Shown piece after piece: positions 17,161-32,576 of a DNA stretch of 64,000 nucleotides. The stretch spans positions 1 to 64,000 of IMG/VR virus record IMGVR_UViG_3300005689_000302; one strand, written 5' to 3'. Positions within the stretch are counted from its first letter, which is position 1; every line of letters starts with the position of its first letter. A model generated the notes under the pieces. It was not told the origin of the DNA and searched no databases. It saw only the letters and a program-made list of their open reading frames with translations. A program made the translations under genes and the position numbers. The DNA comes from a virus. Taxonomy: Duplodnaviria > Caudoviricetes.

Positions 17161-17850
17161 ATGGCGAAGAAGAAGCCGGCGAAGAAGAAGCCGGCGAAGA
17201 AGCAAAACAAACGGGCTGCGCCGAGCAAGGCCGCCAAACCGGCGCCGCGGAAGGCGGCCGCGCCCGCGAAGTCGGCGGCTCCGGCGCCGCCTGTGACGGC
17301 GGCGATGCTTTCCGGCCCGCCCGAGGCGTTCCACGAGATTCGCGAAATCAATCGGCGGTTGTTCCTGAAAGCCTACGCCGACCGCGGGACGATCAAACGG
17401 GCGGCGATGATCGCCGGCGTCGATCGTACGCTGCATTATCACTGGCTGCGCGACGACGGCTACAAAGCGGCTTTCGGCGAAGCGCAGCGGATGTATCGCG
17501 AGAAGCTCGAAGAAGAAGCCGATCGCCGGGCGGTCGATGGCGTCCAGCGATTGAAGTTTTTCAAGGGGGAGCTGATCCTCGTCCCGTGCGAGCCGGGCGA
17601 CCCGCTCGGCCGCTGCCTCGGCAAGACGGCGACTGGCGATGAAGTGTGGGCCAAGCCGTACATCGAGCACGAATATAGCGACAACCTGCTGATGTTCCGC
17701 CTGAAGCGCCTCGATCCGCGCTACAAAGACCGGATCGACGTCAAAACCAAACACAAAACAACGATCAAGCTCGAGCCGGCGCAAGCGCCGGGCGGCTTGC
17801 TGGAAGCGTTCCGGAAGCGATTACTCGACAATAAGCCGTGCCGCAAGTAA
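17161..17850 (+). CDS. terS: Terminase small subunit
   Basis: FLKAYADRGTIKRAAMIAGVDRTLHYHW HTH, LEEEADRRAVDG, EYSDNLLMFRLK; directly upstream of TerL; K/A/P-rich N-terminal tail. Confidence 0.85.
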   Translation: MAKKKPAKKKPAKKQNKRAAPSKAAKPAPRKAAAPAKSAAPAPPVTAAMLSGPPEAFHEIREINRRLFLKAYADRGTIKRAAMIAGVDRTLHYHWLRDDGYKAAFGEAQRMYREKLEEEADRRAVDGVQRLKFFKGELILVPCEPGDPLGRCLGKTATGDEVWAKPYIEHEYSDNLLMFRLKRLDPRYKDRIDVKTKHKTTIKLEPAQAPGGLLEAFRKRLLDNKPCRK

Positions 17851-20459
17851 AGGGAAAGTCGGCCGATCGGATCTTCCACGAGTGGATCAGCTCGGCGGCC
17901 GACGCCCAACCCGACTGGCGCCAGCATCAACGGCTACGCGAGACGCTCACGCCGGCGATGCTCGAGCGGTTCGACGCCGCCGGCGATCCGACGATCGCCC
18001 GTTTCGTGCATCTGCTGTTCACGCATCCGTACTACGCCTTCGAGCCGCGGGCGGACAATCTCGCCGACGGCGACGAGCAAGAATCGTTTGTCAACTCGCG
18101 ATCGCTGATTACGGTCGGGATCGGCGGCAACGGTTCGGGGAAAACGTATTGCGGCGCGCAGCGCTGCGTGAAGTTCCTCGCCGAACAACAAGCGCCGGTC
18201 CGCGATACGCCGTTTTGGATCATTGCCAACACCTTCGAACAGGCTTGCAACTCGACCTGGTTCCAGAAGCTGCGCACGATCCTGCCCGAGTGGTGGATCG
18301 ATTGGGAGCGCGTCGTGTGGCGCAACTCGAAGCGCGGCTGGCCGAAGTCGGTACCGCTGATTCCCGACGAACAGGGGCGCAACTGGCTGCTCGAGTGGAA
18401 AAGCTACGAAGAAGGCCGCGAAGCGATGCAAGCGACCGCCATCGGCGGCGCCTGGTTTACGGAAAACTTCCCCTGGGAAGTCTTTCAAGAAGTGCTGCGC
18501 GGCTGCCGCGAATGGATGCTGCCCGGCGCCGTGACGATGGAGTTAACCCCGCTCGATCCCGAGAAGTCGGCGCCGCTGCAAGACGCTTATGAATCGTGGT
18601 CGGCCGGCGATGAAAAGTTCAAGAATTGGTCGTTTCACTTCCTGAGCACGGTCGCCGCCCGCGACGCTGGCCACGTCAACGCCGACTGGTATCAAGCCTG
18701 GGTGGCGTCGATCAGCGACGAAATGCTCGCCACGCGCACCCGCGGGGCGTTCGCCAACTACGAAGGCTGCATCTATCAATCGTTCAACCCGAAGATCCAC
18801 CTGCTCGACGACATCACCCCGCCGGTCGATGAGTTCGGCCGGCCGACGGTCTATCACCGCCGGGCGATCGACTGGGGCGCCAGCGAAGAGCATCCGTTTG
18901 TCGTGCTGTGGGGCTACAAGGACGCGATCGGCTGCTGGTGGATTTACGACGAATATTGGAGCACCGCGCAAAACCTCACTTGGTCCGAGCACGTCGAACG
19001 GATCGCCAAGCGACACGAGCTCCACGACTGGGCGCGATGGGATGACGACGATCCCCATTACGGATCGACCTACGCCGACCCGAGCCGGCCCGATTTGATG
19101 CGCGAGTTTGCGATGCGCGGCTTGCCGATCACGGCCGCCCGCAACGCTGTTTATGAAGGGATCGAAGCGGTTCGCGCCTGCCTGAAGATCCACCCGCAAA
19201 CCGAAGAGCCGGGGCTGTTCATCGATCGCCACCGCTGCCCGAAGCTCGCCCGGCAAATGAGCACCTACCGCTGGGAGCGCTCGACCGGCGCCGGCGCCAA
19301 CCCGAAAGCGGCCCGCCCGGTGCCGCTCAAGAGAGACGATGACTGCTGCTTTCCTGCGGGTACGCTCGTCGCGACTCCCGAGGGGGCGACGGAAATTGAA
19401 AGCCTGCGCGCAGGCGACGCGGTGCTAACGCATCTGGGCGAAAGCCGAGTCGCTGTTGCCGAAGAAACAGGAGAAGAAGAGCTTTATCGGATTACTTTGA
19501 TCGACGGCCGTGTTATAGAATGTACCGCAACGCATCCGTTCGCAACATCAGACGGAGGCTTCGTTGCCGCCTGCGAACTGACGCCGGGGACATTCATTGA
19601 CAGCCTTCCATCATGCAAGTCCGCGAAGAGATCAACCGAAACGGAAAGCCTCGCGAAGTCATCGAATACGCCGGGCACGTCTGGTATCGATACCCGACTT
19701 GCCGTTCATCACCGGCAAGAACGTATTTCCGGCGATGCGAACGACGGGGCGGTCAGTCGGCGAAGATCCGCACGTTCTGGCTTCACAAGCAAGTCTGGAT
19801 CGACAACTTCGGAAAGATTCCCCGGGGCAGGGTTGTCCACCACAAAGATGAGAACCCAGCCAATAACAGAATCGACAACCTCGAGTTGCTCACTCCATCC
19901 GAGCATTCGAAGCGCCATCGAGCAAACATCGAAAAGGCGATTGACGCCGCTCGTCAGTGGCATGGAAGCAAGGTCGGAAAAGAATGGCACAAGCAGCATG
20001 GACTGCAAACCTGGAACGGTCGCACTTCGAAACTCAAGACCTGCGAATACTGCCGAAAGAGATTCGGGACGAAGGACCGCAAGCGCGCAACGCGATTTTG
20101 CAGCGATCAATGCCGAGCCTATTCGCGACGCCATCGCGGCGACGACAACGAAACCAGAACATGCGAATGGTGCGGGTCTGAGTTCGTCGTCAACCGTTTC
20201 GCAAAGACGACATGCTGCTCGAAAAAATGTGGTTGCCGTGCAAGTTGGGCGCGTGGAGCGCGCAAACCGAAGGGCAAGAGTCTTCAATCTGGCGACTGAC
20301 GACGGAACCTACTTCGCCAACGGCGTTCTCGTTTCCAACTGCGACGCCCTCCGCTACATGATTTACTCCGACGTCGGCAACCGCGCTCAAGGGATCCTCG
20401 CCCGCCGCGAGACGCCCCAAGCGCGGCCCGGCGTCCGCTTCAAACGCGTTTCTCGATAG
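17838..20459 (+). CDS. terL: Terminase large subunit (intein-containing)
   Basis: Walker A GGNGSGKT; nuclease motifs AIDWG, YADPS and DDC/CDALRY; spliced product reads KRDDDCCDALRY. Confidence 0.95.
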   Translation: MPQVKGKSADRIFHEWISSAADAQPDWRQHQRLRETLTPAMLERFDAAGDPTIARFVHLLFTHPYYAFEPRADNLADGDEQESFVNSRSLITVGIGGNGSGKTYCGAQRCVKFLAEQQAPVRDTPFWIIANTFEQACNSTWFQKLRTILPEWWIDWERVVWRNSKRGWPKSVPLIPDEQGRNWLLEWKSYEEGREAMQATAIGGAWFTENFPWEVFQEVLRGCREWMLPGAVTMELTPLDPEKSAPLQDAYESWSAGDEKFKNWSFHFLSTVAARDAGHVNADWYQAWVASISDEMLATRTRGAFANYEGCIYQSFNPKIHLLDDITPPVDEFGRPTVYHRRAIDWGASEEHPFVVLWGYKDAIGCWWIYDEYWSTAQNLTWSEHVERIAKRHELHDWARWDDDDPHYGSTYADPSRPDLMREFAMRGLPITAARNAVYEGIEAVRACLKIHPQTEEPGLFIDRHRCPKLARQMSTYRWERSTGAGANPKAARPVPLKRDDDCCFPAGTLVATPEGATEIESLRAGDAVLTHLGESRVAVAEETGEEELYRITLIDGRVIECTATHPFATSDGGFVAACELTPGTFIDSLPSCKSAKRSTETESLAKSSNTPGTSGIDTRLAVHHRQERISGDANDGAVSRRRSARSGFTSKSGSTTSERFPGAGLSTTKMRTQPITESTTSSCSLHPSIRSAIEQTSKRRLTPLVSGMEARSEKNGTSSMDCKPGTVALRNSRPANTAERDSGRRTASAQRDFAAINAEPIRDAIAATTTKPEHANGAGLSSSSTVSQRRHAARKNVVAVQVGRVERANRRARVFNLATDDGTYFANGVLVSNCDALRYMIYSDVGNRAQGILARRETPQARPGVRFKRVSR
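19347..20339 (+). mobile_element. Intein, 331 aa (C1...S-N; +1 Cys)
   Basis: Block A CFPAGTLVATPEG, block B ECTATHPF, blocks F/G VFNLATDDGTYFANGVLVSN|C; penultimate Ser instead of His. Confidence 0.93.
19613..20299 (+). CDS. HNH homing endonuclease nested out-of-frame inside the intein
   Basis: LHKQVWIDNFGKIPRGRVVHHKDENPANNRIDNLELLTPSEHSKRH plus two C-terminal CxxC...CSxxC zinc ribbons; frame differs from TerL. Confidence 0.92.
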   Translation: MQVREEINRNGKPREVIEYAGHVWYRYPTCRSSPARTYFRRCERRGGQSAKIRTFWLHKQVWIDNFGKIPRGRVVHHKDENPANNRIDNLELLTPSEHSKRHRANIEKAIDAARQWHGSKVGKEWHKQHGLQTWNGRTSKLKTCEYCRKRFGTKDRKRATRFCSDQCRAYSRRHRGDDNETRTCEWCGSEFVVNRFAKTTCCSKKCGCRASWARGARKPKGKSLQSGD

Positions 20460-20466
20460 GTTCGCC

Positions 20467-21489
20467 ATGCCTCGCCAACGCCCGCCGCGACAAGGCGCCC
20501 CGCCGCTGCGCTCGGAAGTCGAACAGCTCGTCGGCGACGTGCAACGCTATTTCCGCGGCGGTTCGACGGTGCGCAGCGCATTCGGTCAGCTCGCCTCGCT
20601 GGTCGCCGAGCTGCTCGGCTTCAGCCGCGGCCAGCGCGGGGCCCCGTCGCGCACCGACATTCAAGACGCGATCGACGTCATGGCCGAAGCGGGCCTCGAT
20701 CCGCGCAACGTGCAAGCCGCGGCGGCGACTGTGGGCGGCGCTGGTCGCGCCGGCCAGCCGTCGGCGCCGCGCAGCGGTCCCCAGCCGCTTACCGCCACGC
20801 AAACCTTACCGCGGCCAGCGCGCGGTTTTCGCGTCGGCGGCACGCCTCCCGGCTCGCCTTCGCTCGATCCGCGCAACCGGCTGCCGCCTGAATTGCGGCT
20901 GCCGCCAGGCGGCGATCGGATCACCGTCCCGGGCGATGCCGACTGGCCGGAAGAGCACCTGATCGACACCCGCGTTATCTCGGCGGCGCTGGTCGATCGA
21001 CTCACTGGCCAACAATCGCTCGAGTGGATCGAGACGCCGCAAAGCTCGAACGTCTACAGCTTCGCCTACGATCACTCGCAATCGATTCTGTACGTCACTT
21101 TCAAGGCGCCGAGCAATCAGCGCCGCCGGCCGCACGTCACCGGGGCAACCTACGCCTACGGTTCGAAGGCGCGGCCGATTCCCGCCCGGATGTACGAATC
21201 GCTCCTGCGGGCCAGCTCCAAGGGTGAATGGGTGTGGGACAAGCTCCGCGTCCGCGGCTCGCGCTGGCGCCACCAAGTGCCGTACATTCTCACCGCCGGC
21301 GGCTTCGACGGCCGGGCCGGCTTCGATGGCGATCCGATGGCGCACTACATTCCGCGGAAGGCTACCGCTCGCGGCTTTCGAGTGCGCACCGTGCCCGTTC
21401 TCGGCTCGGCGCGGCGCCGCGGCGCGATTGGCCGCTCGACGCTGCCTGAGCAAATCGGCCCTGCCTACCGGCAATCGCTCTTGCCGTAG
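20467..21489 (+). CDS. KTSC-domain-containing protein
   Basis: PQSSNVYSFAYDHSQSILYVTFK ... TYAY ... MYESLLRASSKGEWVWDKLR. Confidence 0.75.
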   Translation: MPRQRPPRQGAPPLRSEVEQLVGDVQRYFRGGSTVRSAFGQLASLVAELLGFSRGQRGAPSRTDIQDAIDVMAEAGLDPRNVQAAAATVGGAGRAGQPSAPRSGPQPLTATQTLPRPARGFRVGGTPPGSPSLDPRNRLPPELRLPPGGDRITVPGDADWPEEHLIDTRVISAALVDRLTGQQSLEWIETPQSSNVYSFAYDHSQSILYVTFKAPSNQRRRPHVTGATYAYGSKARPIPARMYESLLRASSKGEWVWDKLRVRGSRWRHQVPYILTAGGFDGRAGFDGDPMAHYIPRKATARGFRVRTVPVLGSARRRGAIGRSTLPEQIGPAYRQSLLP

Positions 21490-21963: not shown

Positions 21964-24900
21964 GTGCTTGCACCTAAAGGCGGCCTCCGCATCAACGGCA
22001 CTACCTACCGCGAAGGCGATCGCGTTACGAAGCGCGACGCCCGCGCGCTGCGCGATGCGCGCCGCCACGCCAAGCTAGGCCAATCGACGCAGCGAGCCGT
22101 CGATCCGGCGGCGCTGATTAAGGACGTCCCGCCAAACTTTGGGCGGGCGATCCTGCCTCACGTTATGACCTTCAGCGGCATGATGAGCACGCTCTCGAAG
22201 GTCTATCGCAACAGCGACGAAGCGCTGCGCCATTCCGTCGAAAACGCCCACATGATGGTTCAAGACCCGATGGTCATGGGCCCGATCTTGGCGCGGCAAA
22301 AGATGGTGGCGCTCTACAACTGGCATTTGCAACCGGAAGACGAAGACGACAAAACGCAGCAAGCGCTCTGCCGCGATCTGACGACGATCCTCAACCGCAT
22401 TCCGCGGTTTGTCGAATACCGGCGCATTCTGCTGCAAGCGGTCTTCTATGGTCGCTATGCGGTTCAGCATCAGTACAGCTTCCACACGGACAGCAAGCGC
22501 AACCGCCGAACGATCGTCTCGCACTATACGCCGATCAGCGGCGATAAGCTCGCTTTCCGCTACGACGACGGGCGCGGGGAGTATGACTACAACCAAGTCG
22601 GCGTGAAGGTGACGCCGGCGCTCAATCACCGCGACGTCATCGCCGGCGATCGGGAGCTGGAAGTGACCGGCGACGGGATGGCGTATTTCCTGCAGCCGTG
22701 GGAGCGCTCGCGGTTCGCCGTCCACAAGCATTTGCTGTGGGATGGCGATTATGAGGATCCGCTCTCGGCCGGCAAGATTCACGGCGTCGGCCTGCGCTCC
22801 TTCATCTATTGGGTCTGGTACCAGAAGCAAGAAGTGCTCGCCCAATTGATGGAGATTGTCGAGCGAACGGGAATGGGCTTCTACGTCTATTACTACCCGA
22901 TGGGCAACGCCGCCGCGAAGGCGGAAGTCGAGAAGATCGCCCAAGAGCAAGCGCATACCAACCGGATTATCGTCCCGCATGACCTGGGCGACCCCGACGC
23001 CTACCGGATCGAACAGATTCCGCCGAACACGGCGGGGATCGAGATTCTGCAAGCGATCGTCACGAATCACTTTCAGAATCAAATCACCAAGTTCGTTCTC
23101 GGGCAAACGCTCTCCACCGACGCGGCGGCAACGGGCCTGGGAAGCGGCGTCGCCGACCTGCACGAAAAATCGCTGCTCAACCTGGCGCGATACGACGCGA
23201 TCAACCTTGAGGAAACGATCACCCGCGAGCTGGTTTGGCCGCTACGGGATTTCAACTTTCCGAAGTATCGCTCGATCGACATCCTCTTCAAAATCGACAC
23301 GGAGTCGAGCACGCCGAAAGAAGACCTCGACGCGGCGAAGGCGCTGTGGGATATGGGCGCCGAGCTGAAGAGCGCCGACTTGTTCGACAAGCTCGGCCTC
23401 TCGATGCCCGGGCCGAACGATCTGAAGCTCTCTAATCCGCAATTGCAGCAGCAAGCCGCCGGCATGATGCCGGGGATGCCTGGAATGCCGCCGGGAATGC
23501 CGCCCGGGCTGCCTGGCGCCGATCCGATGGCTGGCATGATGGGCGGGCCGGAAGAAGGCGGGCCAGAGGATCAGCCGCCGGGCGACGATCCGAGCGAACC
23601 GCCTGGCGGGCCGCCGGCGATGCCGGGCGACGCGGCGCCGCAAGGGCCGGATCTGAAACGCATCTTCGGGCCGATTCTGCACGCCAAGCACAAGCCGGCC
23701 GAGGGCCAGCGCTCGTTGTGGGATGAAGAGAAGCATCCGCGCGACGAAGCCGGGAAGTTTGCGCCGAAGGCTGGCGATAAGTTCACGCTGCCGCCCGTTG
23801 GCGATCGGAAGCCGATGCCGATGAAGGTTTATGGCGTCGATGATGCGCACGCCTACGCCCAACTCGACACGCCCGAACATAACAAGTGGGCTGAGAAGTA
23901 TCCGGCGCCGGGAACCGGTTACGCGAAAGTTCCGCTGCAAAGCTGGAAGCATTTTGTCAACGATCTGAGCGGAAAGCTGCAATTCGACACGCCGAGCGGT
24001 AATCACGCTGTCGATGCGGTCGCCGCCGGCAAGGGCAAGTGGCTGGGCAAGGGCGACGACGGCGTCGCCTGGCGGGTCGGCGATTGGGTTGTCAAAGCGT
24101 CGACCACCGTTCCTTTTATTCCCGAAAACCCTGGCCACCGAACGCCCGATGAAGCGGCGGCCATGATGGAGAAGGCGAGCACGGCGCACGAGAAGCTACG
24201 GCGGGCCGGAGTGAAGGGCCTAGTTCCCATCTATCACTTCCGGCACGAAGACAAGCACCTGCAGGTAATGCCGTTTCTGGATACTGAAACGCCCCTGACG
24301 GGTGAACAGCTTTGGCAAATCGAGAAAACGCTCGAGCAAATCCACGCTGCCGGCTATACGCTGAACGATCAGATTCAAGCCGGCGTGATGGACGATGGCA
24401 ACGCCTATATTTATGACACCGGCAAGATTCGCCCCGGCGCCGACAACTGGAAGAAGGAAAGCGACCGCGACGAACTACGCGCCCTAAAGAGTCGTCACGG
24501 CCACCCGGAACCGATCGACGTATGGGATGGAAACAACGACGATCTGGACGCCGAGGACGCCGCCGAAGCGGCCGCGGCCCGCGAAGACGACAAGCGCCGC
24601 TATGGCATGGCGATGCGTTACGCCAAGCAAGCGAGCCTGTGGGACGAAGAGAAGCATCCCCGCGAAGACGACGGCAAGTTCGCCTTTACCTCGGGTCCGG
24701 GCGGCGGATCATCGCCCGCCAAGAGCAAGCCGGCCAGTCTCTTCGGTGATGATGACGCCGGCGACGATGAACCGTTCACCCTCGGCGCCGCGCCGAAGAA
24801 GGCAAAGCAAGGCGGGCGCTTCGAAGGCAAAGGAAAAGAAAAGCAGCCGCCACTCTTCTCGGGGCTGAACGCGCTGCCTGGTCAGAAAGATCTATTCGAC

Positions 24901-27900
24901 GATCTGGACAAACCGGCGCCGCCGGATCCTTTGAAAGCCCCGCGCGAAGCCGCGCCGCCGCCGAAGCTCGTCAGCGAGCCGCCGCCGGCGCCTGCGCCCA
25001 CCGCGACCGAATCGCTCGCTCCGATCAGCTCGAAGAATTACGCGCCGCATGTGTACGCCGGCCTCAACAAGCTGTGGGACGCCGGCGGGACGGCCTACGT
25101 CAACACGCATCTGAAAACGACGCGGATCGCGCCGAAGGATCGAGACGCGATCAAGCTCACGAGCAAGGGCGGTCTATACCTGCGCCGCGGCAAACATTGG
25201 GATGCGATCACCGGCGACGTACTCGATCGCCTGGGAAGCCAAGTCGGCCTACCGTCGAGCTACGATCTGCACAAGCAAGAATGGGACGCCGAGCACAAGA
25301 ACGCCCGCTACGGCGGCAAGCATCCGGGCGAACTACACGACGCCGAATTTCTCGATCACGCCGAAACGGAGAAGCGCCATCGGGCCAACTATTTCGACGC
25401 CGCCGGCAATAAGTTCGCGAGCAGTCGCGAGACGCCGGCCGAATATGTCGACCTCCCCATCGGTTCCTGGCGGAAGGATCGCAGCTTTAGCGGCCTCTAC
25501 GGAAACAGCATCGATCAGCTCGTCGAGCTCGATCCGAACCATTTGGAGTTGCCCGAGGGGGACTACGCCGCCAATCCGAATTTCAACCCGGAAGGGCGAC
25601 GATGGGATGCGGAGCGATACGCCGATTGGATCCGCGAGGGGAAAACCCCGCCGCCGATCAGCGTGCTCGAAATGCCCAATGGATCGCTGAAGGTTAGCGA
25701 TGGCCACCGCCGCGCCGCCGCCGCCAAGATGACCGGCCAGCCGATTCGCGCCTGGGTCAATTGGGCGGCCGATACCGGCAAGAAGGATTACGAAGGCAAG
25801 CCGATCCTGTCGGGGATGACCGATCAGCTCGCCGCGCGCGAGCACGCCGGCGAAGTCGAACCGCATAGCGGCCTGGGCTGGGGGCATGAGGGCGTTGTGA
25901 AGCGGGCGGGGCCTGAGCGACACGCCAAGCCTCGCCCCCTCGACGACTTTGCCCTGCGCAACTTCGCCGAGCGGATCCGCCGCGGCGATCAGCACGGCGC
26001 CCGCGATCTGCTCGTCCGGGCCGGCTTCGATCCGCTGACGCTCGACGCCTATTGGGGAATGATCGTTAAGTCAGTGGTGGGCGGAACTGCGCCGATCAAG
26101 CACGCCCGCGATCTTCGCGCCGCCATCACCGCCGCGGCTGACGCCACGAATACAGATCCGAGCGACGCCCAGCGCGAAGCCGGCAACTATCCCAAGGGCA
26201 AACTGTGGCTGCACGGCCTCGAGCTGACGATCGAGAACCCGAAAGGCTCGAAGCGCCGGCCGGAGTGGAAGCCGCTGGCGGCCCACTACGGCTACATTCG
26301 CCGCCACGAAGGCGCCGACGGCGATCAAGTCGATTGCTACCTCGGGCCCCATCCGGAAAGCCAGCTCGTCTTCGTCATCGATCAGCCGAAGGCCTCGGGG
26401 CGCTTTGACGAGCATAAGGTGATGTTCGGCTGGACGAACCTCCGCGACGCGCGAAAAGCGTACGCCGACTGCTATCAAGCCGGCTGGAAAGTCGGCCCGA
26501 TCACCGCCCTGACGATCGAGCAATTCAAAGACTGGCTCGAGTTCGGCGACTTGTCGAAGCCGATCGGCCGCTACAAGCCGGCGAAATACGCCCGCTCGAT
26601 GGCGTCGGTGCTGCGCTACGCCGAGCGATCGGAAGAACGCGGGCAAGGCCGCGGCCAGCCTGGCAATCGCGGGCAGTTCGGCTACGCGCCCAAGCGGAAG
26701 AAAACGATCGGGCAAGGCCAGCAAGAGTTCCATTGGGTGACGATCGACGGAACGCACGTTGCGATCAACGATGCGACCGGGGCGATCGAAAAGGGTCCGA
26801 AGGCGCTCGTGGGTAAGACGCTCGGCGGGCCGAAGAAACAGAAGGGGCTGTTTGACGACGACGATAAGCCGGCGAAAAAGGCGGAAGAGAAGCCCGAAGA
26901 GAAACGGGTCGAAGCGCCGCCCGAAAAGAAACCGCCCGAGGTGCCGGCGACGATCGAAGAGCTTGACGACGACGTTGTCGACGACGATGACATCGAAGCG
27001 GGGGACGATAGCGTTACCGATCGCCTCAAGTCCAGCGTAAACGCCTTTCTCGACGACAAGCCCGATGGCTCGTGGCGGGATTGGATGGATGAGCGCGGCA
27101 CGAAACATTTGCTCGACGAATTAGACGGCGGCGATGATAAGCTTCGCGGGCGATTGGAGTATGAAGCGTTTGAGCTGTTCGCTTGGAGGGAGCCGAAGGA
27201 GAAGGATCAGCCGGCGGGCGAAACGGCCGACGATGTACTCGAGCCTTTCGCAGAATCTCCGGAGCCAGCCGCCGACGCGTCGCCTGAGCCGGCTCTGCCC
27301 GCCGAGCAATCTGCCACACCCTCTGCCGCTCCCGCGCCAAAGCCTGCCGCGACGGCCAAGTCAAAGGGCGCCCGCGCCGCCGCCCGCGCGAAGTTGATGG
27401 AAGACTTCGGCGAAAAGATCGGCGGCGCTCGAAAGGAAACGGCGCGGCCTTCCAATCGTCCGAAAGTCGAGAAGCCCGCCGACGAACGGCCCGCCTGGGC
27501 GCGGCGCTACAACATTTCCCAAATCACCAAAAGCACGAAGCCCGGCGAAGAGGGGAAGTGGGCGATCTACGACACGAAACAAAAGACCTGGTCGGGCCAG
27601 CCGAAGCAAGTCGGCGGCGGCATGTTGTTTGATTCCAAGGAGGATGCCGAGAAGAGCTTGCCGCTGTACGAAGTATCGCGCAGCCACCGCGTCTACGCCT
27701 ACACGCCGAAGGGCGCGACCGAAAAGCAGTTCGGCATTTTCCGCAAACTGGGCGACCGAAAGACGCCGCTCGTCAAAGGCGGTTTTGCCTCCGAACAGGA
27801 GGCGATGCAACATATGGCGGCGAATCCACACGATGTTATCGGTCACAAGTTTCCGCGATACGAAAGCTACCAGTACCTCGATCGCGTCGAACGCAAGGGC

Positions 27901-29100
27901 GGGAAAGAGCATCGCAAGGGCGACGTGAAGCCGGCCGACTTTCAAAACGCCTTCAATTTCCGCGGCGGTGAGTTCGGCAACTGGCAATCGGGCAAGGATG
28001 GGCAAACCTCGCTCAATCACGCCTACGACGCCCTGCACGATCTGGCCGACGTGCTGGGAGTTCCGCCGAAAGCCGTCTCACTCAACGGCGATCTGGCAAT
28101 CGCTTTCGGGGCGCGCGGAACGGGCGGGAAAGACGCCGCCCGCGCCCATTACGAGCCCGAAAAGCGGGTTATCAACCTGACGAAAATGTCCGGCGCCGGC
28201 ACGCTGGCGCATGAGTGGCTGCACGCGCTGGACCACTACCTCGCCAAAGAGGCCGGCTCGAAGAAACACACGACGACGGGGCTTGGCTACAGGGAGAAGC
28301 TCCGCGACGATCTGCACGCCGCGATGAAGGGCGTTCACGACGCGTTGATGACGAAGACGGTCGAAGAAGGATTCTCTGACGAAAAGACGGGCAAGCAACG
28401 CGACGCGGCGCACGAGAACCTTGCCGAGCAACTGAAGAACATCGAGCAACTGTTTGACTACTACGGAAAGAAGAAGCCGTTCACGCCCGAGCAACAAAAG
28501 CAATGGAACGAGCTTAAGGGCAAGATTCTCGCGGGCGATGTGGGCAAGGCCGGCTACCTGCCGAGTAAATCGCAATATGGCGGTCCGCCGACGTTTGAGA
28601 ATCTGCATCAACTGAACCAGCTCTACAAGGCGCGCACCGGGCGCAGCTTCCATACGAGCGATCAAAACTCCTATGGCCACCGGCTCTATTGGGCGGCCAA
28701 GCATCTTGTTGATTCCAACGAAGCGGTGGAAAAGGCCAAGCAAGGCGCCACGCAACAGCGGAAAGCCAAGACGGATTTCTTTCATGCGGCCGTCGATTTG
28801 GACAAGACGCGCGCCAGCGACTATTACACGCTGCCCGAGGAAATGATGGCCCGCGCCTTCGAAGGCTACGTCATGGACAAGCTGGCGGCCAAGCAACAAA
28901 AGAACGATTACCTCGGCGGCAAGGCTGACAATCGATTCTATGAGGCTTACGGGATGAAGCCGTTCCCCGAGGGCGACGAACGCAAGGCGATCAACGCCGC
29001 CTTCGACAAGCTATTCACCACGCTCAAGCACGAATCGCGCAGCGACGAACGCGGCGAACACGCTCGGCTGTATTCCAAGTTGCGCGAACGGGTTTCCTAG
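21964..29100 (+). CDS. Portal (DUF935/Mu gp29-like) fused to a polyvalent cargo polyprotein, 2378 aa
   Basis: N-terminal about 500 aa portal (QAVFYGRYA, GVGLRSFIYW, VERTGMG, ITKFVLGQTLST, GLGSGVADLH); then kinase-like, ParB-like (DGHRR), InPase-like (ENPKGS, HYGYI, DGDQVD, FDEHKVM) and LPD5/LPD1-like (DFGEKIGGARK, GEFGNW, AHEWLHALD, ARAFE) segments; single open frame. Confidence 0.88.
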   Translation: MLAPKGGLRINGTTYREGDRVTKRDARALRDARRHAKLGQSTQRAVDPAALIKDVPPNFGRAILPHVMTFSGMMSTLSKVYRNSDEALRHSVENAHMMVQDPMVMGPILARQKMVALYNWHLQPEDEDDKTQQALCRDLTTILNRIPRFVEYRRILLQAVFYGRYAVQHQYSFHTDSKRNRRTIVSHYTPISGDKLAFRYDDGRGEYDYNQVGVKVTPALNHRDVIAGDRELEVTGDGMAYFLQPWERSRFAVHKHLLWDGDYEDPLSAGKIHGVGLRSFIYWVWYQKQEVLAQLMEIVERTGMGFYVYYYPMGNAAAKAEVEKIAQEQAHTNRIIVPHDLGDPDAYRIEQIPPNTAGIEILQAIVTNHFQNQITKFVLGQTLSTDAAATGLGSGVADLHEKSLLNLARYDAINLEETITRELVWPLRDFNFPKYRSIDILFKIDTESSTPKEDLDAAKALWDMGAELKSADLFDKLGLSMPGPNDLKLSNPQLQQQAAGMMPGMPGMPPGMPPGLPGADPMAGMMGGPEEGGPEDQPPGDDPSEPPGGPPAMPGDAAPQGPDLKRIFGPILHAKHKPAEGQRSLWDEEKHPRDEAGKFAPKAGDKFTLPPVGDRKPMPMKVYGVDDAHAYAQLDTPEHNKWAEKYPAPGTGYAKVPLQSWKHFVNDLSGKLQFDTPSGNHAVDAVAAGKGKWLGKGDDGVAWRVGDWVVKASTTVPFIPENPGHRTPDEAAAMMEKASTAHEKLRRAGVKGLVPIYHFRHEDKHLQVMPFLDTETPLTGEQLWQIEKTLEQIHAAGYTLNDQIQAGVMDDGNAYIYDTGKIRPGADNWKKESDRDELRALKSRHGHPEPIDVWDGNNDDLDAEDAAEAAAAREDDKRRYGMAMRYAKQASLWDEEKHPREDDGKFAFTSGPGGGSSPAKSKPASLFGDDDAGDDEPFTLGAAPKKAKQGGRFEGKGKEKQPPLFSGLNALPGQKDLFDDLDKPAPPDPLKAPREAAPPPKLVSEPPPAPAPTATESLAPISSKNYAPHVYAGLNKLWDAGGTAYVNTHLKTTRIAPKDRDAIKLTSKGGLYLRRGKHWDAITGDVLDRLGSQVGLPSSYDLHKQEWDAEHKNARYGGKHPGELHDAEFLDHAETEKRHRANYFDAAGNKFASSRETPAEYVDLPIGSWRKDRSFSGLYGNSIDQLVELDPNHLELPEGDYAANPNFNPEGRRWDAERYADWIREGKTPPPISVLEMPNGSLKVSDGHRRAAAAKMTGQPIRAWVNWAADTGKKDYEGKPILSGMTDQLAAREHAGEVEPHSGLGWGHEGVVKRAGPERHAKPRPLDDFALRNFAERIRRGDQHGARDLLVRAGFDPLTLDAYWGMIVKSVVGGTAPIKHARDLRAAITAAADATNTDPSDAQREAGNYPKGKLWLHGLELTIENPKGSKRRPEWKPLAAHYGYIRRHEGADGDQVDCYLGPHPESQLVFVIDQPKASGRFDEHKVMFGWTNLRDARKAYADCYQAGWKVGPITALTIEQFKDWLEFGDLSKPIGRYKPAKYARSMASVLRYAERSEERGQGRGQPGNRGQFGYAPKRKKTIGQGQQEFHWVTIDGTHVAINDATGAIEKGPKALVGKTLGGPKKQKGLFDDDDKPAKKAEEKPEEKRVEAPPEKKPPEVPATIEELDDDVVDDDDIEAGDDSVTDRLKSSVNAFLDDKPDGSWRDWMDERGTKHLLDELDGGDDKLRGRLEYEAFELFAWREPKEKDQPAGETADDVLEPFAESPEPAADASPEPALPAEQSATPSAAPAPKPAATAKSKGARAAARAKLMEDFGEKIGGARKETARPSNRPKVEKPADERPAWARRYNISQITKSTKPGEEGKWAIYDTKQKTWSGQPKQVGGGMLFDSKEDAEKSLPLYEVSRSHRVYAYTPKGATEKQFGIFRKLGDRKTPLVKGGFASEQEAMQHMAANPHDVIGHKFPRYESYQYLDRVERKGGKEHRKGDVKPADFQNAFNFRGGEFGNWQSGKDGQTSLNHAYDALHDLADVLGVPPKAVSLNGDLAIAFGARGTGGKDAARAHYEPEKRVINLTKMSGAGTLAHEWLHALDHYLAKEAGSKKHTTTGLGYREKLRDDLHAAMKGVHDALMTKTVEEGFSDEKTGKQRDAAHENLAEQLKNIEQLFDYYGKKKPFTPEQQKQWNELKGKILAGDVGKAGYLPSKSQYGGPPTFENLHQLNQLYKARTGRSFHTSDQNSYGHRLYWAAKHLVDSNEAVEKAKQGATQQRKAKTDFFHAAVDLDKTRASDYYTLPEEMMARAFEGYVMDKLAAKQQKNDYLGGKADNRFYEAYGMKPFPEGDERKAINAAFDKLFTTLKHESRSDERGEHARLYSKLRERVS

Positions 29101-29141: not shown

Positions 29142-32100
29142 GTGTCCAGCCTCATGACCGGCAAACGGTCGTCTCAATATCCGTCCGCGATTCGCTACGC
29201 TGCCGAGTGGCGTGAAGAAGATCACCCGCGCAACGAAGACGGCGAGTTCGTTGAGAAAGACGGCGGCGTCGGCGCTGCGCTCGGCGACGCCTACGAAGGC
29301 GACGGCGGCGACGACTCGTTCGACTTCGGCCCCGACGACGCCTACAGTCCTGGCGATGGCGAAGCGTTGCAGCTCGGCCCCGACGACGCCTACAGTCCTG
29401 GCGACTCCTACGAAGGCGACTTTGAAGCGGGCGAGCCTGATACCTCGTTCGACTTCGGCGCCGACGAACCGCCGAAAGCGGGCGGAAAGGTGGCGCAAAT
29501 TGTCGACGACGTGCTCGACGACGCCTTCGGGGGCGGCGAAAGCGCCGAGGAACAGCCGCGGCCGGGCGATACCTTCACTTCGCGCGCCACTGGCGCGACC
29601 TATCCCGCAACGACGCCGAAGCAAGTCGCCGACCTGATCGATCGCCTCAAGGCGATGGACGCCGGCCGGCGCGAGCGCGTAGCGACGGAAGACGACGAGC
29701 CGGAGCTCGACGCCGACGCGCTGGGAATCGACGACGAGGATCAAGAGCTGGACGCCGGCGACTTGGGAATCGCTGGCGTTCCGGAAGACGACGAGCCGAT
29801 CGACCTGGAATCCGTTCCGGAAGACGACGAGCCGATCGATGCGGAAATCGTTCCTGACGCTGACAAGCCGCCGGTCGCTTATCCGCCCGCTGGCGCTCCT
29901 GGCGCCGCTGCCGGCCCTGCCGCCAGCAACCAGCCGGCCGCGGCCCGGCGTCGCCTGACGCTCGAAGCGGTCGCCAAAATCGCCGAGAAGCTCAATACCT
30001 ACCTCAAGACCGGAAAGTTCGACGAAGAGGATTTGCGGCGCCTGGGGCAATCGCTCGCCGAGCGCTTCAATCCGCGGCCGGCCCCGGAAGATTCGCCGGC
30101 GGCGGTTGTCGCCGAGCATTTGGATAAGGCGCCGGGAATCGTTGGCGACGCGCTCCGCGCTTTGCACGCCTCGCGGGAAGTGCAGCGCACCGGGCGCACC
30201 GACAACGCCGACCTGCACGGCGATTATGCGCGGCGCGTCTATCGACACTTACAATCGGTCGCCCGGGAGGGGGACGGGTTCGGCGAAGTCTATGACTTGT
30301 CGGCCGAGCTCGGCCCGGGCGCCGTTGGCTACGCTTCGCCGGCCGGCGTGCTGGCAATGCTTCCCCCGCGGTTCAAGGGGCAAGGCTGGGACGTACGCTA
30401 CGCGGCGCAGCCGCCAGGAAGCGAAGCGCGAGCGCCGCTGCCGCAAAAGCCCGACGCCAAGGGGAAGCAGCCGAAGCAACCGAAGGCCCCGCCCGTCGTG
30501 GGTTCGACGCCACCGAAACCGCCAGCGCCGCCGAAACCGCCAAAGCCTACGCCGGCGCCAAAGCCACCGAAGCCCGCGCCAGCGCCAAAGCAACCGAAAG
30601 GCCCCAAGCCGCCGCCCGTCGTCGGATCGGTCCCGCCGAAGCCGCCGAAGCCGCCGAAGGCCCCCAAGCCGGAAAAGGCGCCGAAAGAACAGCGCACGCG
30701 AAGCGAGCATCTTTTGATGGGGAAAATCTCCAAGCTCACCGAAGACCCGGAAGAGCAACGCGCAATCTACGACGCCGCCCGCGAGCTGCACAACATGCGG
30801 CAAAACGAAATGAGCGACCTGCTGCAAGCGCGCAACGATCTTTTGCCGTACAGCAACAAAATCGACAACGCCGCCTTCATCCGCAACCTGCAGCGGATCA
30901 TGGCCAAGGGCGGCGACGAAGAAACGCTGATGAAGACGCCGCTCGGCCGGCGGTGGGATCAACTGCTCGAGCGGGCGCAGAAGGATTACCCGCACCTTCT
31001 CGGCGGCGGCAAGCGGAAGCTCGACCCGTCAAGCGCGCTGATGGATTTGCTTTCCAAGCCGGCGACGGAGTTCGAAATCCCGCCGCTGCACTCCGACGAA
31101 TCGCTGGCCGAGGCGGTCAGCTTCATCCAAAGCCAAGCCAACGAACCGGAGTTTGTTCCGGATCCCGCGCTGGATGCGGTTCCGTTTGCGCTCTCGCGCG
31201 CGACGGTGATTCGCTATCGGCGGTGGGCGATGTCGGCGCTCGGTCGCTATCGGGCGGCGCGGGCGGCGGCGCGAAAATACTCGAAAGAGTGGAAGGAATC
31301 GCAGCATCCCCGCGAAGACGACGGGAAGTTTGCCGAGAAGGATTCCGGAGCGCATAATGGCGGCGCCATGAACGCCAATCTGCCAATCGCGACGCCGCCT
31401 AATGACTCCGTTAACGACTCGCGCCTCGTTGCCGGCGAAACCATTCCGCGCGGAGAATCCTACGACGACGCTCTTGCGATTTACAACGCCTGGCAAAAGC
31501 GCAATCCCCGGCCGCCCGCCTTGTACGAAGCGAAGCTGCCGGAGATTCCCAAAGGCACGCCCGATCGTGCGCGACTCAAAGCCGAGCAAGAGGCCCCTTA
31601 CATCGCGGCGCAGAAGGAATACGAAGCCAATCTTCAAGCGGTGAGTCGCCTGAGCGGATACGCCGAACACTCGCTGGCGAAGCACAAAGCCGAGCAAGCG
31701 GCTCGCGAATCCCAAAGCGCCGCCAAGCACGCCGACAAACTAAAGGCGCTCGCATGGGCGCAAAGCCACGCCGGAAAAAACCAATACGCGCAGCAAGCGA
31801 TCGACGACATTCGCCGCGGCGACGATCCGCTGCGCTCCGTTCATCGCGCCTGGTATCCCGGCGCCGCGCAGTATGCGATCAAGCAGCTCAAGAAGCTCGG
31901 CGCCAAGCGCGAGCACACGAGCGAAAAGAGCGCTTCGGCCGGTTCGGTCTATTACGGCTTGCCGGATGGGCGACGCATTCGGATCAGCGATCACGAACTG
32001 CCGTTGACGGAGGAACGCCAGTGGAATCGCTCGCAAGGGATTCGCGGCCGGTGGCGGGAAATCGTTCTCGATCGCGTCATTCCTCCCGAGGAAATCGACG

Positions 32101-32576
32101 CGATGATCGACGATGCCGTAACGGGTGGGAACGACGATGAAGAGTTTGTCGAGAAGGACGGCGCGGCGCATAATGGCGACGCTATGAATCTCACTCTCTA
32201 TCGCGCTACAGACGATCCGATCATTGTTGGTTCGGCTAGTTTCTCTACCTCGCGCGAAGCGGCGGAAGCGTATTTGAATAATCCCGGCTTCGGCGGTTCG
32301 ACGTTGTATCGAGCGGATGTTGAAATCGACCCGGATACGCTGCTCGACGTTTTCGATATGGACACCGAAGACGCCATTGAAGCCATTCGAGAAGTTGCCG
32401 ACCTGCCGCATCCCGGCGCCATCGGTGCCGACGAATGGGTGCCTCGCATCGCTGAAACGCTTCGCGACGCCGGCATTGAATGGGTGCGCGTGAGGGAAAG
32501 CTATCCCGTTGACAGCGAAACCTACATTTTCGTTGGCGGCGACGATCCGGAGCTAGAAGAAGCGACGGACGAATAG
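29142..32576 (+). CDS. Second polyvalent cargo protein, 1144 aa, in the slot usually held by MuF
   Basis: RYAAEWREEDHPRNEDGEF leader, acidic repeats, P/K-rich linker, second HPR leader, IRISDH domain, C-terminal YR...SFSTS ART-like segment; no MuF HxNCRC motif. Confidence 0.8.
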   Translation: MSSLMTGKRSSQYPSAIRYAAEWREEDHPRNEDGEFVEKDGGVGAALGDAYEGDGGDDSFDFGPDDAYSPGDGEALQLGPDDAYSPGDSYEGDFEAGEPDTSFDFGADEPPKAGGKVAQIVDDVLDDAFGGGESAEEQPRPGDTFTSRATGATYPATTPKQVADLIDRLKAMDAGRRERVATEDDEPELDADALGIDDEDQELDAGDLGIAGVPEDDEPIDLESVPEDDEPIDAEIVPDADKPPVAYPPAGAPGAAAGPAASNQPAAARRRLTLEAVAKIAEKLNTYLKTGKFDEEDLRRLGQSLAERFNPRPAPEDSPAAVVAEHLDKAPGIVGDALRALHASREVQRTGRTDNADLHGDYARRVYRHLQSVAREGDGFGEVYDLSAELGPGAVGYASPAGVLAMLPPRFKGQGWDVRYAAQPPGSEARAPLPQKPDAKGKQPKQPKAPPVVGSTPPKPPAPPKPPKPTPAPKPPKPAPAPKQPKGPKPPPVVGSVPPKPPKPPKAPKPEKAPKEQRTRSEHLLMGKISKLTEDPEEQRAIYDAARELHNMRQNEMSDLLQARNDLLPYSNKIDNAAFIRNLQRIMAKGGDEETLMKTPLGRRWDQLLERAQKDYPHLLGGGKRKLDPSSALMDLLSKPATEFEIPPLHSDESLAEAVSFIQSQANEPEFVPDPALDAVPFALSRATVIRYRRWAMSALGRYRAARAAARKYSKEWKESQHPREDDGKFAEKDSGAHNGGAMNANLPIATPPNDSVNDSRLVAGETIPRGESYDDALAIYNAWQKRNPRPPALYEAKLPEIPKGTPDRARLKAEQEAPYIAAQKEYEANLQAVSRLSGYAEHSLAKHKAEQAARESQSAAKHADKLKALAWAQSHAGKNQYAQQAIDDIRRGDDPLRSVHRAWYPGAAQYAIKQLKKLGAKREHTSEKSASAGSVYYGLPDGRRIRISDHELPLTEERQWNRSQGIRGRWREIVLDRVIPPEEIDAMIDDAVTGGNDDEEFVEKDGAAHNGDAMNLTLYRATDDPIIVGSASFSTSREAAEAYLNNPGFGGSTLYRADVEIDPDTLLDVFDMDTEDAIEAIREVADLPHPGAIGADEWVPRIAETLRDAGIEWVRVRESYPVDSETYIFVGGDDPELEEATDE
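29326..29404 (+). repeat. 31-bp direct repeat x2 (GPDDAYSPGD), 48-nt period
   Basis: tcggccccgacgacgcctacagtcctggcga at 29326 and 29374. Confidence 0.9.
29778..29839 (+). repeat. 26-bp direct repeat x2 (VPEDDEPID), 36-nt period
   Basis: gttccggaagacgacgagccgatcga at 29778 and 29814. Confidence 0.9.
31330..31370 (+). promoter_or_regulatory. Candidate intragenic sigma70-type promoter A with in-frame ATG
   Basis: TTGCCG-N17-CATAAT, in-frame ATG 9 nt after the -10 (31368). Confidence 0.5.
32146..32186 (+). promoter_or_regulatory. Candidate intragenic sigma70-type promoter B with in-frame ATG
   Basis: TTGTCG-N17-CATAAT, in-frame ATG 9 nt after the -10 (32184). Confidence 0.5.

Follow-up and report, generated by a model that had tools for sequence, protein, structure and literature searches.

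We analysed a window of 64,000 nucleotides, positions 1 to 64,000 of the IMG/VR virus record IMGVR_UViG_3300005689_000302 (Duplodnaviria; Caudoviricetes), whose complete source record comprises 83,203 bp and is rated complete by CheckV. The head module in this window contains a giant gene in which a Mu-type portal domain is joined through a low-complexity linker to a C-terminal cargo of ~1,880 amino acids (aa), which consists of at least four modules and amounts to ~207 kDa per chain (Table 1). The preliminary description of this locus, made from the sequence alone, had read the gene as a DUF935-type portal that runs without interruption into a string of polyvalent effector domains, and our analysis bears this out. 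The gene is one open reading frame (ORF), the G+C content at third codon positions (GC3) lies between 0.66 and 0.84 across all of its 100-codon blocks, and the same architecture is found clade-wide. Mapping with Pfam and PHROG recovers the portal and the ParB-like, InPase, and LPD1 domains of that string, the P/G/M linker is seen in the sequence, the kinase-like module is suggested by the ESM Atlas and by conserved residues, and LPD5 is suggested by homologues; in the profile hidden Markov model domain map, Portal_Mu, InPase, and LPD1 all score above the Pfam cut-offs. With unrelated domains in one chain, the signature domains LPD1 and InPase, and a location among the late head genes, the fusion has the characters of a polyvalent protein.

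Table 1. Features of the portal-cargo fusion gene and of the surrounding head module (positions in the window; aa numbering of the respective protein).
Feature	Position	Strand	Remarks
Whole portal-cargo fusion gene (P0001)	21964..29100	+	Single ORF, GTG start, 2,378 aa, no internal stop
Mu-type portal domain, aa 1-495	21964..23448	+	Pfam Portal_Mu covers aa 97-479
P/G/M-rich low-complexity linker, aa 496-565	23449..23658	+	Length varies among relatives; alignment occupancy 0.34-0.59
First junction motif RIFGPILHAKHK, aa 566-577	23659..23694	+	FGP motif ending in a YAK-type site
HPR tag 1, WDEEKHPRDEAGKFAPK, aa 586-602	23719..23769	+	Motif logo
Kinase-like module, aa ~640-880	23881..24603	+	Gly-loop 689-699, K711, D802, D818
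Second junction: RYAKQ aa 884-888, then HPR tag 2 aa 893-909	24613..24690	+	
ParB/Srx-like module, aa ~1107-1294	25282..25845	+	PHROG 1033; TIGR00180 below cut-off
InPase module, aa 1379-1535	26098..26568	+	PF18823; KHAR site before, KYAR site after
LPD5-like/zincin/LPD1 module, aa 1810-2370	27391..29073	+	HEWLH aa 2083-2087, distal Glu aa 2293
Large terminase, 873 aa, split by intein	17838..20459	+	Pfam Terminase_6N and Hint/Intein_splicing; PHROG terminase families
KTSC-domain protein	20467..21489	+	PF13619; directly upstream of portal
P0121, 1,144 aa, next gene after fusion	29142..32576	+	Two HPR tags, HPR codons at 29223 and 31305
Predicted prohead protease + helical scaffold (h542), 542 aa	33532..35160	+	N-terminal protease domain, invariant H94 and S149; conserved 3' of portal in relatives
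Probable major capsid protein (h345), 345 aa	35806..36843	+	Role by position; best-conserved head gene, 38-59% identity in relatives

The Portal_Mu/DUF935 profile (PF06074) aligns with the portal part over positions 7-336 of its 336, with an E value of 6e-39 and 134.8 bits against a cut-off of 23.9, and the portal part also matches the portal in PDB entry 8rka at an E of 1.6e-9. Conservation among 120 homologues stops near aa 495. A genome-wide profile search gave one PF06074 match (139.5 bits), and the other portal families PF04860, PF05133, and PF07230 have no match at E ≤ 1 in the genome. Because the PF06074 match is single and the other portal families are undetected, the fusion must, judging from these profile searches, be the sole working portal gene of the phage. 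The observation that no MuF motif is visible also stands: neither the 83-kb genome nor any of five related records (50-106 kb) contains a PF04233 match at E ≤ 1, and control genomes do match.

The first cargo module is kinase-like by its sequence. The nearest clusters in the ESM Atlas are the SteC/OspG effector kinases (score 0.96), and G689..G697, K711, D802, and D818 are invariant in a six-sequence alignment. The segment has no match in Pfam, NCBIfam, or the PDB sequences, and only two stand-alone homologues exist within the length range searched. The next module is ParB-like, with a match to PHROG 1033 at aa 1185-1260 (E 2e-6), a weak match to TIGR00180 (E 0.001; 18.8 bits, far under the cut-off of 58), and none in Pfam; a PDB sequence search of aa 900-1400 returned nothing significant. 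The InPase module matches PF18823 at aa 1401-1526 (E 1e-40, 139 bits) and has lost none of the 42 columns with a conservation of 90% or more across 64 relatives; DGDxxD (1452-1457) and DEHK (1482-1485) belong to these columns. A further match of the module, at an E of 2e-27, is to the C-terminal end of the Pa193 portal (PDB 9b41). A short motif, 'WVTIDGTHVAI...G.I..GP', lies at ~26734-26766 on the plus strand (aa 1591-1601) and recurs just after junction regions in several relatives (e.g., P0083, P0099, and P0100); it may be a further small recurrent cargo mini-module.

The C-terminal module is one unit that occurs widely, and its stand-alone homologues, 240-767 aa long, number more than 2,000. 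Its LPD1 domain lies at aa 2279-2357 (Pfam, E 5e-22, 78 bits, above cut-off), and the module also matches NCBIfam CLCA_X (E 3e-22) and large unnamed PHROG polyvalent families over aa 1773-2375. An alignment of 40 sequences shows no variation at H2083, E2084, H2087, or E2293. An AlphaFold (AF2) model of the module has a predicted local distance difference test score (pLDDT) of 86 and a predicted template modelling score (pTM) of 0.81, and the best module-spanning matches in VIA-align are all zincins with middling Z scores (anthrax lethal factor, 8.2; 3dl1, 7.7; PPEP-3, 7.4; PPEP-2, 7.3), followed by further zincins at lower Z (4l7a, 6.5; thermolysin, 5.9). Foldseek of the same model against the PDB gave nothing at E ≤ 1e-3, and a PDB sequence search with the module gave nothing significant. 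The Pfam LPD5 profile (PF18799) matches neither the whole protein at E ≤ 0.1 nor segments of it at E ≤ 1; close stand-alone homologues, one of them 55% identical, carry PF18799, and Shiga toxin (Stx) phage proteins annotated as LPD5 are 44-47% identical to aa ~1900-2100 of the fusion. The enzymatic activities of all these cargo modules are predicted ones.

The fusion is a member of a large clade of long portals. A word-indexed search limited to proteins of 1,307-4,162 aa yielded 122 clusters of long proteins with N-termini 30-77% identical to the portal. All the matches listed carry PF06074 followed by varied cargo, such as SNF2 helicases, methyltransferases, sigma-70 region 2, Nudix, and ART, and very often InPase. 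A second search with the portal domain, exhaustive and length-blind with phmmer, gave 1,802 representatives, and E was 1e-30 or lower for 928 of these. The nearest 150 have a median length of 1,349 aa and a maximum of 3,099 aa; 145 are at least 650 aa long, 112 at least 1,000, 81 at least 1,300, 64 at least 1,500, and 27 at least 2,000. At 26 IMG/VR loci, the sequence after the portal domain spans from 4 aa to 2,188 aa. The modules of the present fusion are shared with these relatives as a mosaic in varying order and combination: at least 64 relatives have the InPase, ~22 the zincin, ~6 the ParB-like module (e.g., P0003 at 47% identity), and 3-4 the kinase-like module. Such shuffling of cargo modules is as expected of polyvalent proteins. 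In a relative of P0004 (a 59-kb JGI contig), a 2,669-aa portal fusion is accompanied ~6 kb downstream by a second giant protein of at least 3,148 aa with faint or weak matches to ART-PolyVal, ExoX-like, and PAPS-reductase domains; clade members can therefore encode several giant cargo proteins.

The cultured phages in the collection hold no close portal, the best match being 26% identical over 40% of the query. Among the species-representative genomes, 11 of the 13 portal matches lie in metagenome-assembled genomes (MAGs) of Planctomycetota (Pirellulaceae, Planctomycetaceae, and Thermoguttaceae). Because related portals sit in these MAGs, some of them on contigs that exceed phage length, and because one related record in IMG/VR is listed as a provirus, the hosts are likely planctomycetes. 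Three clade members, that provirus (L011) and two on MAG contigs of 114 and 172 kb (L036 and L039), are seemingly integrated in Pirellulales genomes and could offer a route to a cultivable host-phage pair.

Recurrent short motifs mark the joints of the cargo. After the linker, many relatives have the motif [LIM]FGP[ILV][LM]..K, which reads RIFGPILHAK here (aa 566-575), and an FGP-type motif is present in 61 of the 115 anchored fusions. This first junction motif is a candidate cleavage site at which the whole cargo would be separated from the portal. In many relatives the InPase directly follows the FGP-type motif; the ancestral layout was thus probably portal-linker-InPase, as in PB1-like phages, with ~830 aa inserted in the present phage. 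A second element, the 'HPR tag', comprises the 17 residues [WF]-D-E-x-x-H-P-R-D-x-D-G-K-F-[AT]-x-K, after which comes a Gly-rich stretch. Its logo draws on 118 unique instances, which come from 86 of 211 proteins. The tag stands at the start of modules in the fusion and in the product of the next gene. Genome-wide there are four copies in coding frame, two in the fusion (aa 586 and aa 893) and two in P0121, the product of the next gene, where one lies 20 aa from the N-terminus, after 'IRYAAE', and the other after 'RKYSKE'.

The third element is the tripeptide Y-[AS]-[KR], mostly preceded by R, K, or Q. It occurs 339 times in the cargo of 210 fusions compared with 122±11 times in shuffled sequences, in counts that, like all motif and tag statistics here, include related sequences, and it is 5-fold rarer in the portal parts than in the cargo. 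It lies no more than 25 aa upstream of 42 of 105 HPR tags, where the chance rate is 3.3%. The present fusion has five sites of the strict motif, four at cargo module boundaries (aa 885, 1319, 1379, and 1541) and one in the N-terminal region of the portal (aa 34). Among the phage late proteins, the strict motif is confined to head-module proteins, and there is none in ~7,400 aa of terminase and tail proteins.

A candidate for the enzyme that acts on these sites is encoded in the same head module. The model of the 542-aa protein is moderately confident (pLDDT 60 overall, ~65-83 in the protease domain) and ends in long, confident, scaffold-like C-terminal helices. Its protease part has 25 BFVD matches at E ≤ 1e-3, down to 5e-11, with names such as peptidase, capsid maturation protease, and prohead protease, and its best structural matches in the PDB are T4 gp21 (Z 7.0) and the herpesvirus assemblins of varicella-zoster virus and human cytomegalovirus (Z 6.6 and 5.3). 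The two residues H94 and S149 are invariant in the family, which has no match in Pfam and nothing significant in a PDB sequence search. The protein thus has the marks of an assemblin-fold prohead serine protease, fused to a helical, scaffold-like part.

Prohead proteases typically cut the scaffold and the internal proteins at one common consensus, as T4 gp21 does. In 15 members of the protease-scaffold family, Y[AS][KR] occurs 27 times compared with 4.9±2.1 times after shuffling (0 of 500 shuffles reach 27), and the protease domain precedes all of these sites. In the capsid family the excess is only mild (7 versus 3.2). The presence of the same motif in the scaffold and in the cargo joints is as shared-consensus cleavage predicts. 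In addition, the density of YAK sites is independent of the presence of a zincin in the fusion, which fits an enzyme present in all relatives. These motif data suggest that the prohead protease frees the cargo modules.

We therefore propose, at about an even chance of being right, that a polyvalent protein on the C-terminus of the portal is loaded into the head, cut free by the prohead protease, and ejected with the DNA. The C-terminus of the fusion would point into the capsid, so that twelve chains would assemble into the portal of the prohead with their cargo inside; a position of the cargo within the head at the portal vertex is a supported idea, and its cleavage is plausible as well. Such a fusion would provide a fixed dose of cargo in the absence of a separate targeting system or MuF, ~2.5 MDa per head if all 12 chains are loaded at ~207 kDa each. 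By our estimate, this load resembles that of the P22 ejection proteins and is therefore physically plausible. The copy numbers of the P22 proteins were taken from PMC8402733. During head maturation, the protease-scaffold protein would cut Y/H-[AS]-[KR] sites in the flexible joints, with the first cut at FGPILHAK just past the portal linker. These cuts would leave a portal of normal size (~63 kDa) and pieces of ~34, 47, 6, 18, and 92 kDa, i.e., four or five free modules in the head, including the kinase-like, ParB-like, InPase, and zincin/LPD1 modules. Together with the DNA, the freed modules would exit and target the host as infection begins. The location of the cargo, the loading of 12 copies, the cleavage and the need for it, the enzyme responsible, and the ejection are points that we infer.

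Several observations weigh against this proposal. The first junction motif is present in only about half of the anchored fusions, and kinship among the counted sequences means that the motif statistics overstate independence. No YAK site separates aa 1541 from the zincin module, which would leave the last 830 aa in one piece. For experimental support, cleavage, packaging, and ejection in this clade rest on analogy with other phages: phi24B gp47, a homologous giant protein, is abundant in virions yet unseen by cryo-EM, and the InPase-bearing end of the Pa193 portal is likewise missing from the virion map. Furthermore, E217 gp19, the closest characterized portal-InPase, has no YAK, FGP, or HPR motifs; the joint grammar thus does not extend to PB1-like phages, and tethered, uncut cargo may be workable.

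An account in which the cargo is never released draws on the absence of the FGP-type first site from about half of the clade. The uncut cargo would stay tethered to the portal crown by its linker and act on the genome end, serve as a plug or pressure element, or be threaded out C-terminus first. The linker is long and flexible, and the PB1-like portals bear an InPase with no recognizable junction motif; in Pa193, the C-terminal 237 residues of the portal, InPase included, are unresolved in the virion map (PMC11456595). However, twelve attached folded chains of ~200 kDa could not reach the host with the DNA, and the kinase-like, ParB-like, and zincin modules are of types that are predicted in the literature to hit host targets. 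The joint motif is also common with the scaffold, a typical protease substrate. We thus consider permanently tethered cargo unlikely, though worth keeping in view.

In another account, the zincin-like metallopeptidase at the C-terminus of the cargo, and not the prohead protease, would release the modules and recognize the HPR tag. This would agree with the invariant HExxH...E and the zincin-like model, and a self-processing role has been proposed for polyvalent proteins by Iyer et al. (PMC5512222). HPR tags are present in 16 of 23 zincin-bearing fusions compared with 59 of 187 others (p 8e-4), and in 15 of 21 compared with 32 of 105 when matched for length (odds ratio ~5, p ~9e-4), but this association counts related sequences. 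Loci that lack a zincin within 10 kb bear tags as well, and at the level of loci the association is not significant (p 0.55). Moreover, only 23 of the 210 portal fusions have a zincin module, and the authors of the phi24B study favour a role in the degradation of host structures (bioRxiv 10.64898/2026.04.10.717836). Self-processing by the zincin is accordingly quite improbable in our judgement.

Recoding within the linker, by a frameshift or early termination, would make most portals short and leave few with cargo, as with Gag-Pol. Either of the other frames stops soon after any shift in the linker, which would yield a portal of nearly normal size. In the region of aa 470-620, neither a canonical X_XXY_YYZ slippery site nor an internal start preceded by a Shine-Dalgarno sequence is present, and the linker sequence is not conserved among relatives. 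We consider recoding very unlikely and dropped it, as the slippery site or internal start that would support it was not found in the sequence. Finally, a sequencing or assembly error that masks a stop after the portal, or a chimeric contig, is effectively refuted, since more than 120 independent clusters have the same architecture with differing cargo, the 90% protein cluster of the fusion itself has two members on two contigs, the codon bias is uniform, both alternative frames hold stops throughout the portal-cargo junction (aa 480-620), and relatives retain, in frame, the junction motif that follows the linker.

The cargo that bears the HPR tag would already be covalently loaded, so a function as a loading address seems redundant, and the tag may serve in processing or ejection instead. 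More broadly, it is possible, although we hold it to be doubtful, that the portal has replaced MuF as the universal carrier in this clade and that the joints obey a two-part code, in which Y-[AS]-[KR], shared with the scaffold, would be cut by the prohead protease and the HPR tag would become the N-terminal leader of each released module and signal a later step, such as ordering, tail ejection, or enzyme docking. If true, this code would be an undescribed, generalizable grammar for phage-delivered proteins.

The gene order of the head module is the large terminase with an intein, the KTSC protein, the fusion, the 1,144-aa P0121, the protease-scaffold protein, a 131-aa protein, and the 345-aa probable capsid protein, and a sheath-like protein is encoded farther downstream. 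The intein of the terminase is indicated by Hint_2/Intein_splicing matches at aa ~503-834, between the N- and C-terminal parts of the terminase. A KTSC protein lies immediately 5' of the portal in at least 30 related loci as well (tblastn) and is a conserved partner of the portal gene. P0121 has no Pfam or PHROG match and also holds a long PKPP-rich repeat region. Its similarity to proteins of relatives is weak and patchy, and it lies outside their conserved head core; it therefore looks like a second, extra cargo protein that is untethered. The probable capsid protein has no family match, either in a PDB sequence search or in a Pfam scan of its family.

Portals are usually regarded as compact ring subunits of 35-100 kDa, and the portal chains of this uncultured clade have masses of 150-340 kDa. 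Loading by fusion combined with release by the head protease would, if it takes place, be the simplest known way to fix the dose of first-strike enzymes, and the list of cargo could be read directly from the portal gene. The joint motifs predict fragment sizes and new N-termini precisely and cheaply, and could make the long-standing, largely untested idea of processing and injection of polyvalent proteins directly testable. Portal fusion could also be used as a means of bringing foreign proteins into capsids.

Iyer et al. (2017) defined the polyvalent proteins of phages and recorded InPase (BcepF1 gp124), PBECR, and 2H domains fused to portal domains (PMC5512222), and Nudix, 2H, and ART were likewise found fused to portals in 2022 (PMC9503650). 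Polyvalent proteins are predicted there to be packaged in the head and injected (PMC5512222; PMC9503650). The premise of the preliminary description, that known polyvalent cargo is either fused to MuF or encoded by genes of its own, is therefore wrong, since both papers record portal fusions and the portal in PDB 9b41 ends in an InPase. Portal-borne cargo as such is already known from the literature. What goes beyond the literature searched is the size of the multi-domain cargo, its presence as the default across a large, MuF-less, planctomycete-associated clade, and the joint motifs shared with the scaffold; the value of the present system thus lies in its scale, in the clade-wide pattern, and in a testable model of processing.

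Like the polyvalent proteins of Iyer et al., the fusion combines many unrelated enzymatic domains in one chain, among them LPD1, InPase, ParB-like, and zincin-like domains, and is encoded among the late head genes. However, the portal fusions in their papers are the 'simplest architectures', with one effector, and MuF, not the portal, is named as a hub of their network, whereas the present clade carries multi-module portal cargo as the norm (with the median length given above) and MuF is undetected. The junction motifs of the cargo are also undescribed in those papers. The portals of the PB1-like phages (Pbunavirus) and BcepF1 resemble the fusion in having a portal, a C-terminal linker, and a homologous InPase, as in Pa193/E217 gp19 of 765 aa (PDB 9b41; PMC11456595), and portal-InPase proteins of the PB1 type are present in ~290 Pseudomonas phage genomes. 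In contrast with the present fusion, they carry one cargo domain rather than four or more, their portal domain is not detectably similar by phmmer, the YAK, FGP, and HPR motifs are missing (E217 gp19), and a separate 'head morphogenesis' gene is kept. In the case of the Stx phage phi24B, the giant polyvalent protein gp47 of 2,811 aa is abundant in virions by proteomics and absent from the cryo-EM maps (bioRxiv 10.64898/2026.04.10.717836). It has LPD5, LPD1, and metallopeptidase domains, to which an LPD5-like part, an LPD1 domain, and a zincin-like part would correspond in the present fusion, but it is a stand-alone protein, not fused to a portal, and comes from a podovirus of enterobacteria.

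The internal proteins of T4 and Alt carry a capsid-targeting sequence that is cut by the gp21 prohead protease. They are a functional analogy to the present cargo, since they are loaded into the head, have a cleavage consensus in common with the scaffold, and are released by a prohead protease of the assemblin fold; Alt is also discussed in PMC5512222. The targeting peptide of the T4 proteins is bound to the scaffold core, in contrast to the covalent portal fusion here, and the consensus is L/I-x-E rather than Y-[AS]-[KR]. Phage Mu, whose portal is itself trimmed as the head matures, shares the same portal family (PF06074) with the present clade, but in Mu the portal (gp29) stays short and the effector domain is borne by MuF as a protein of its own (gp30), whereas in the present clade MuF is undetected and the portal itself is the carrier.

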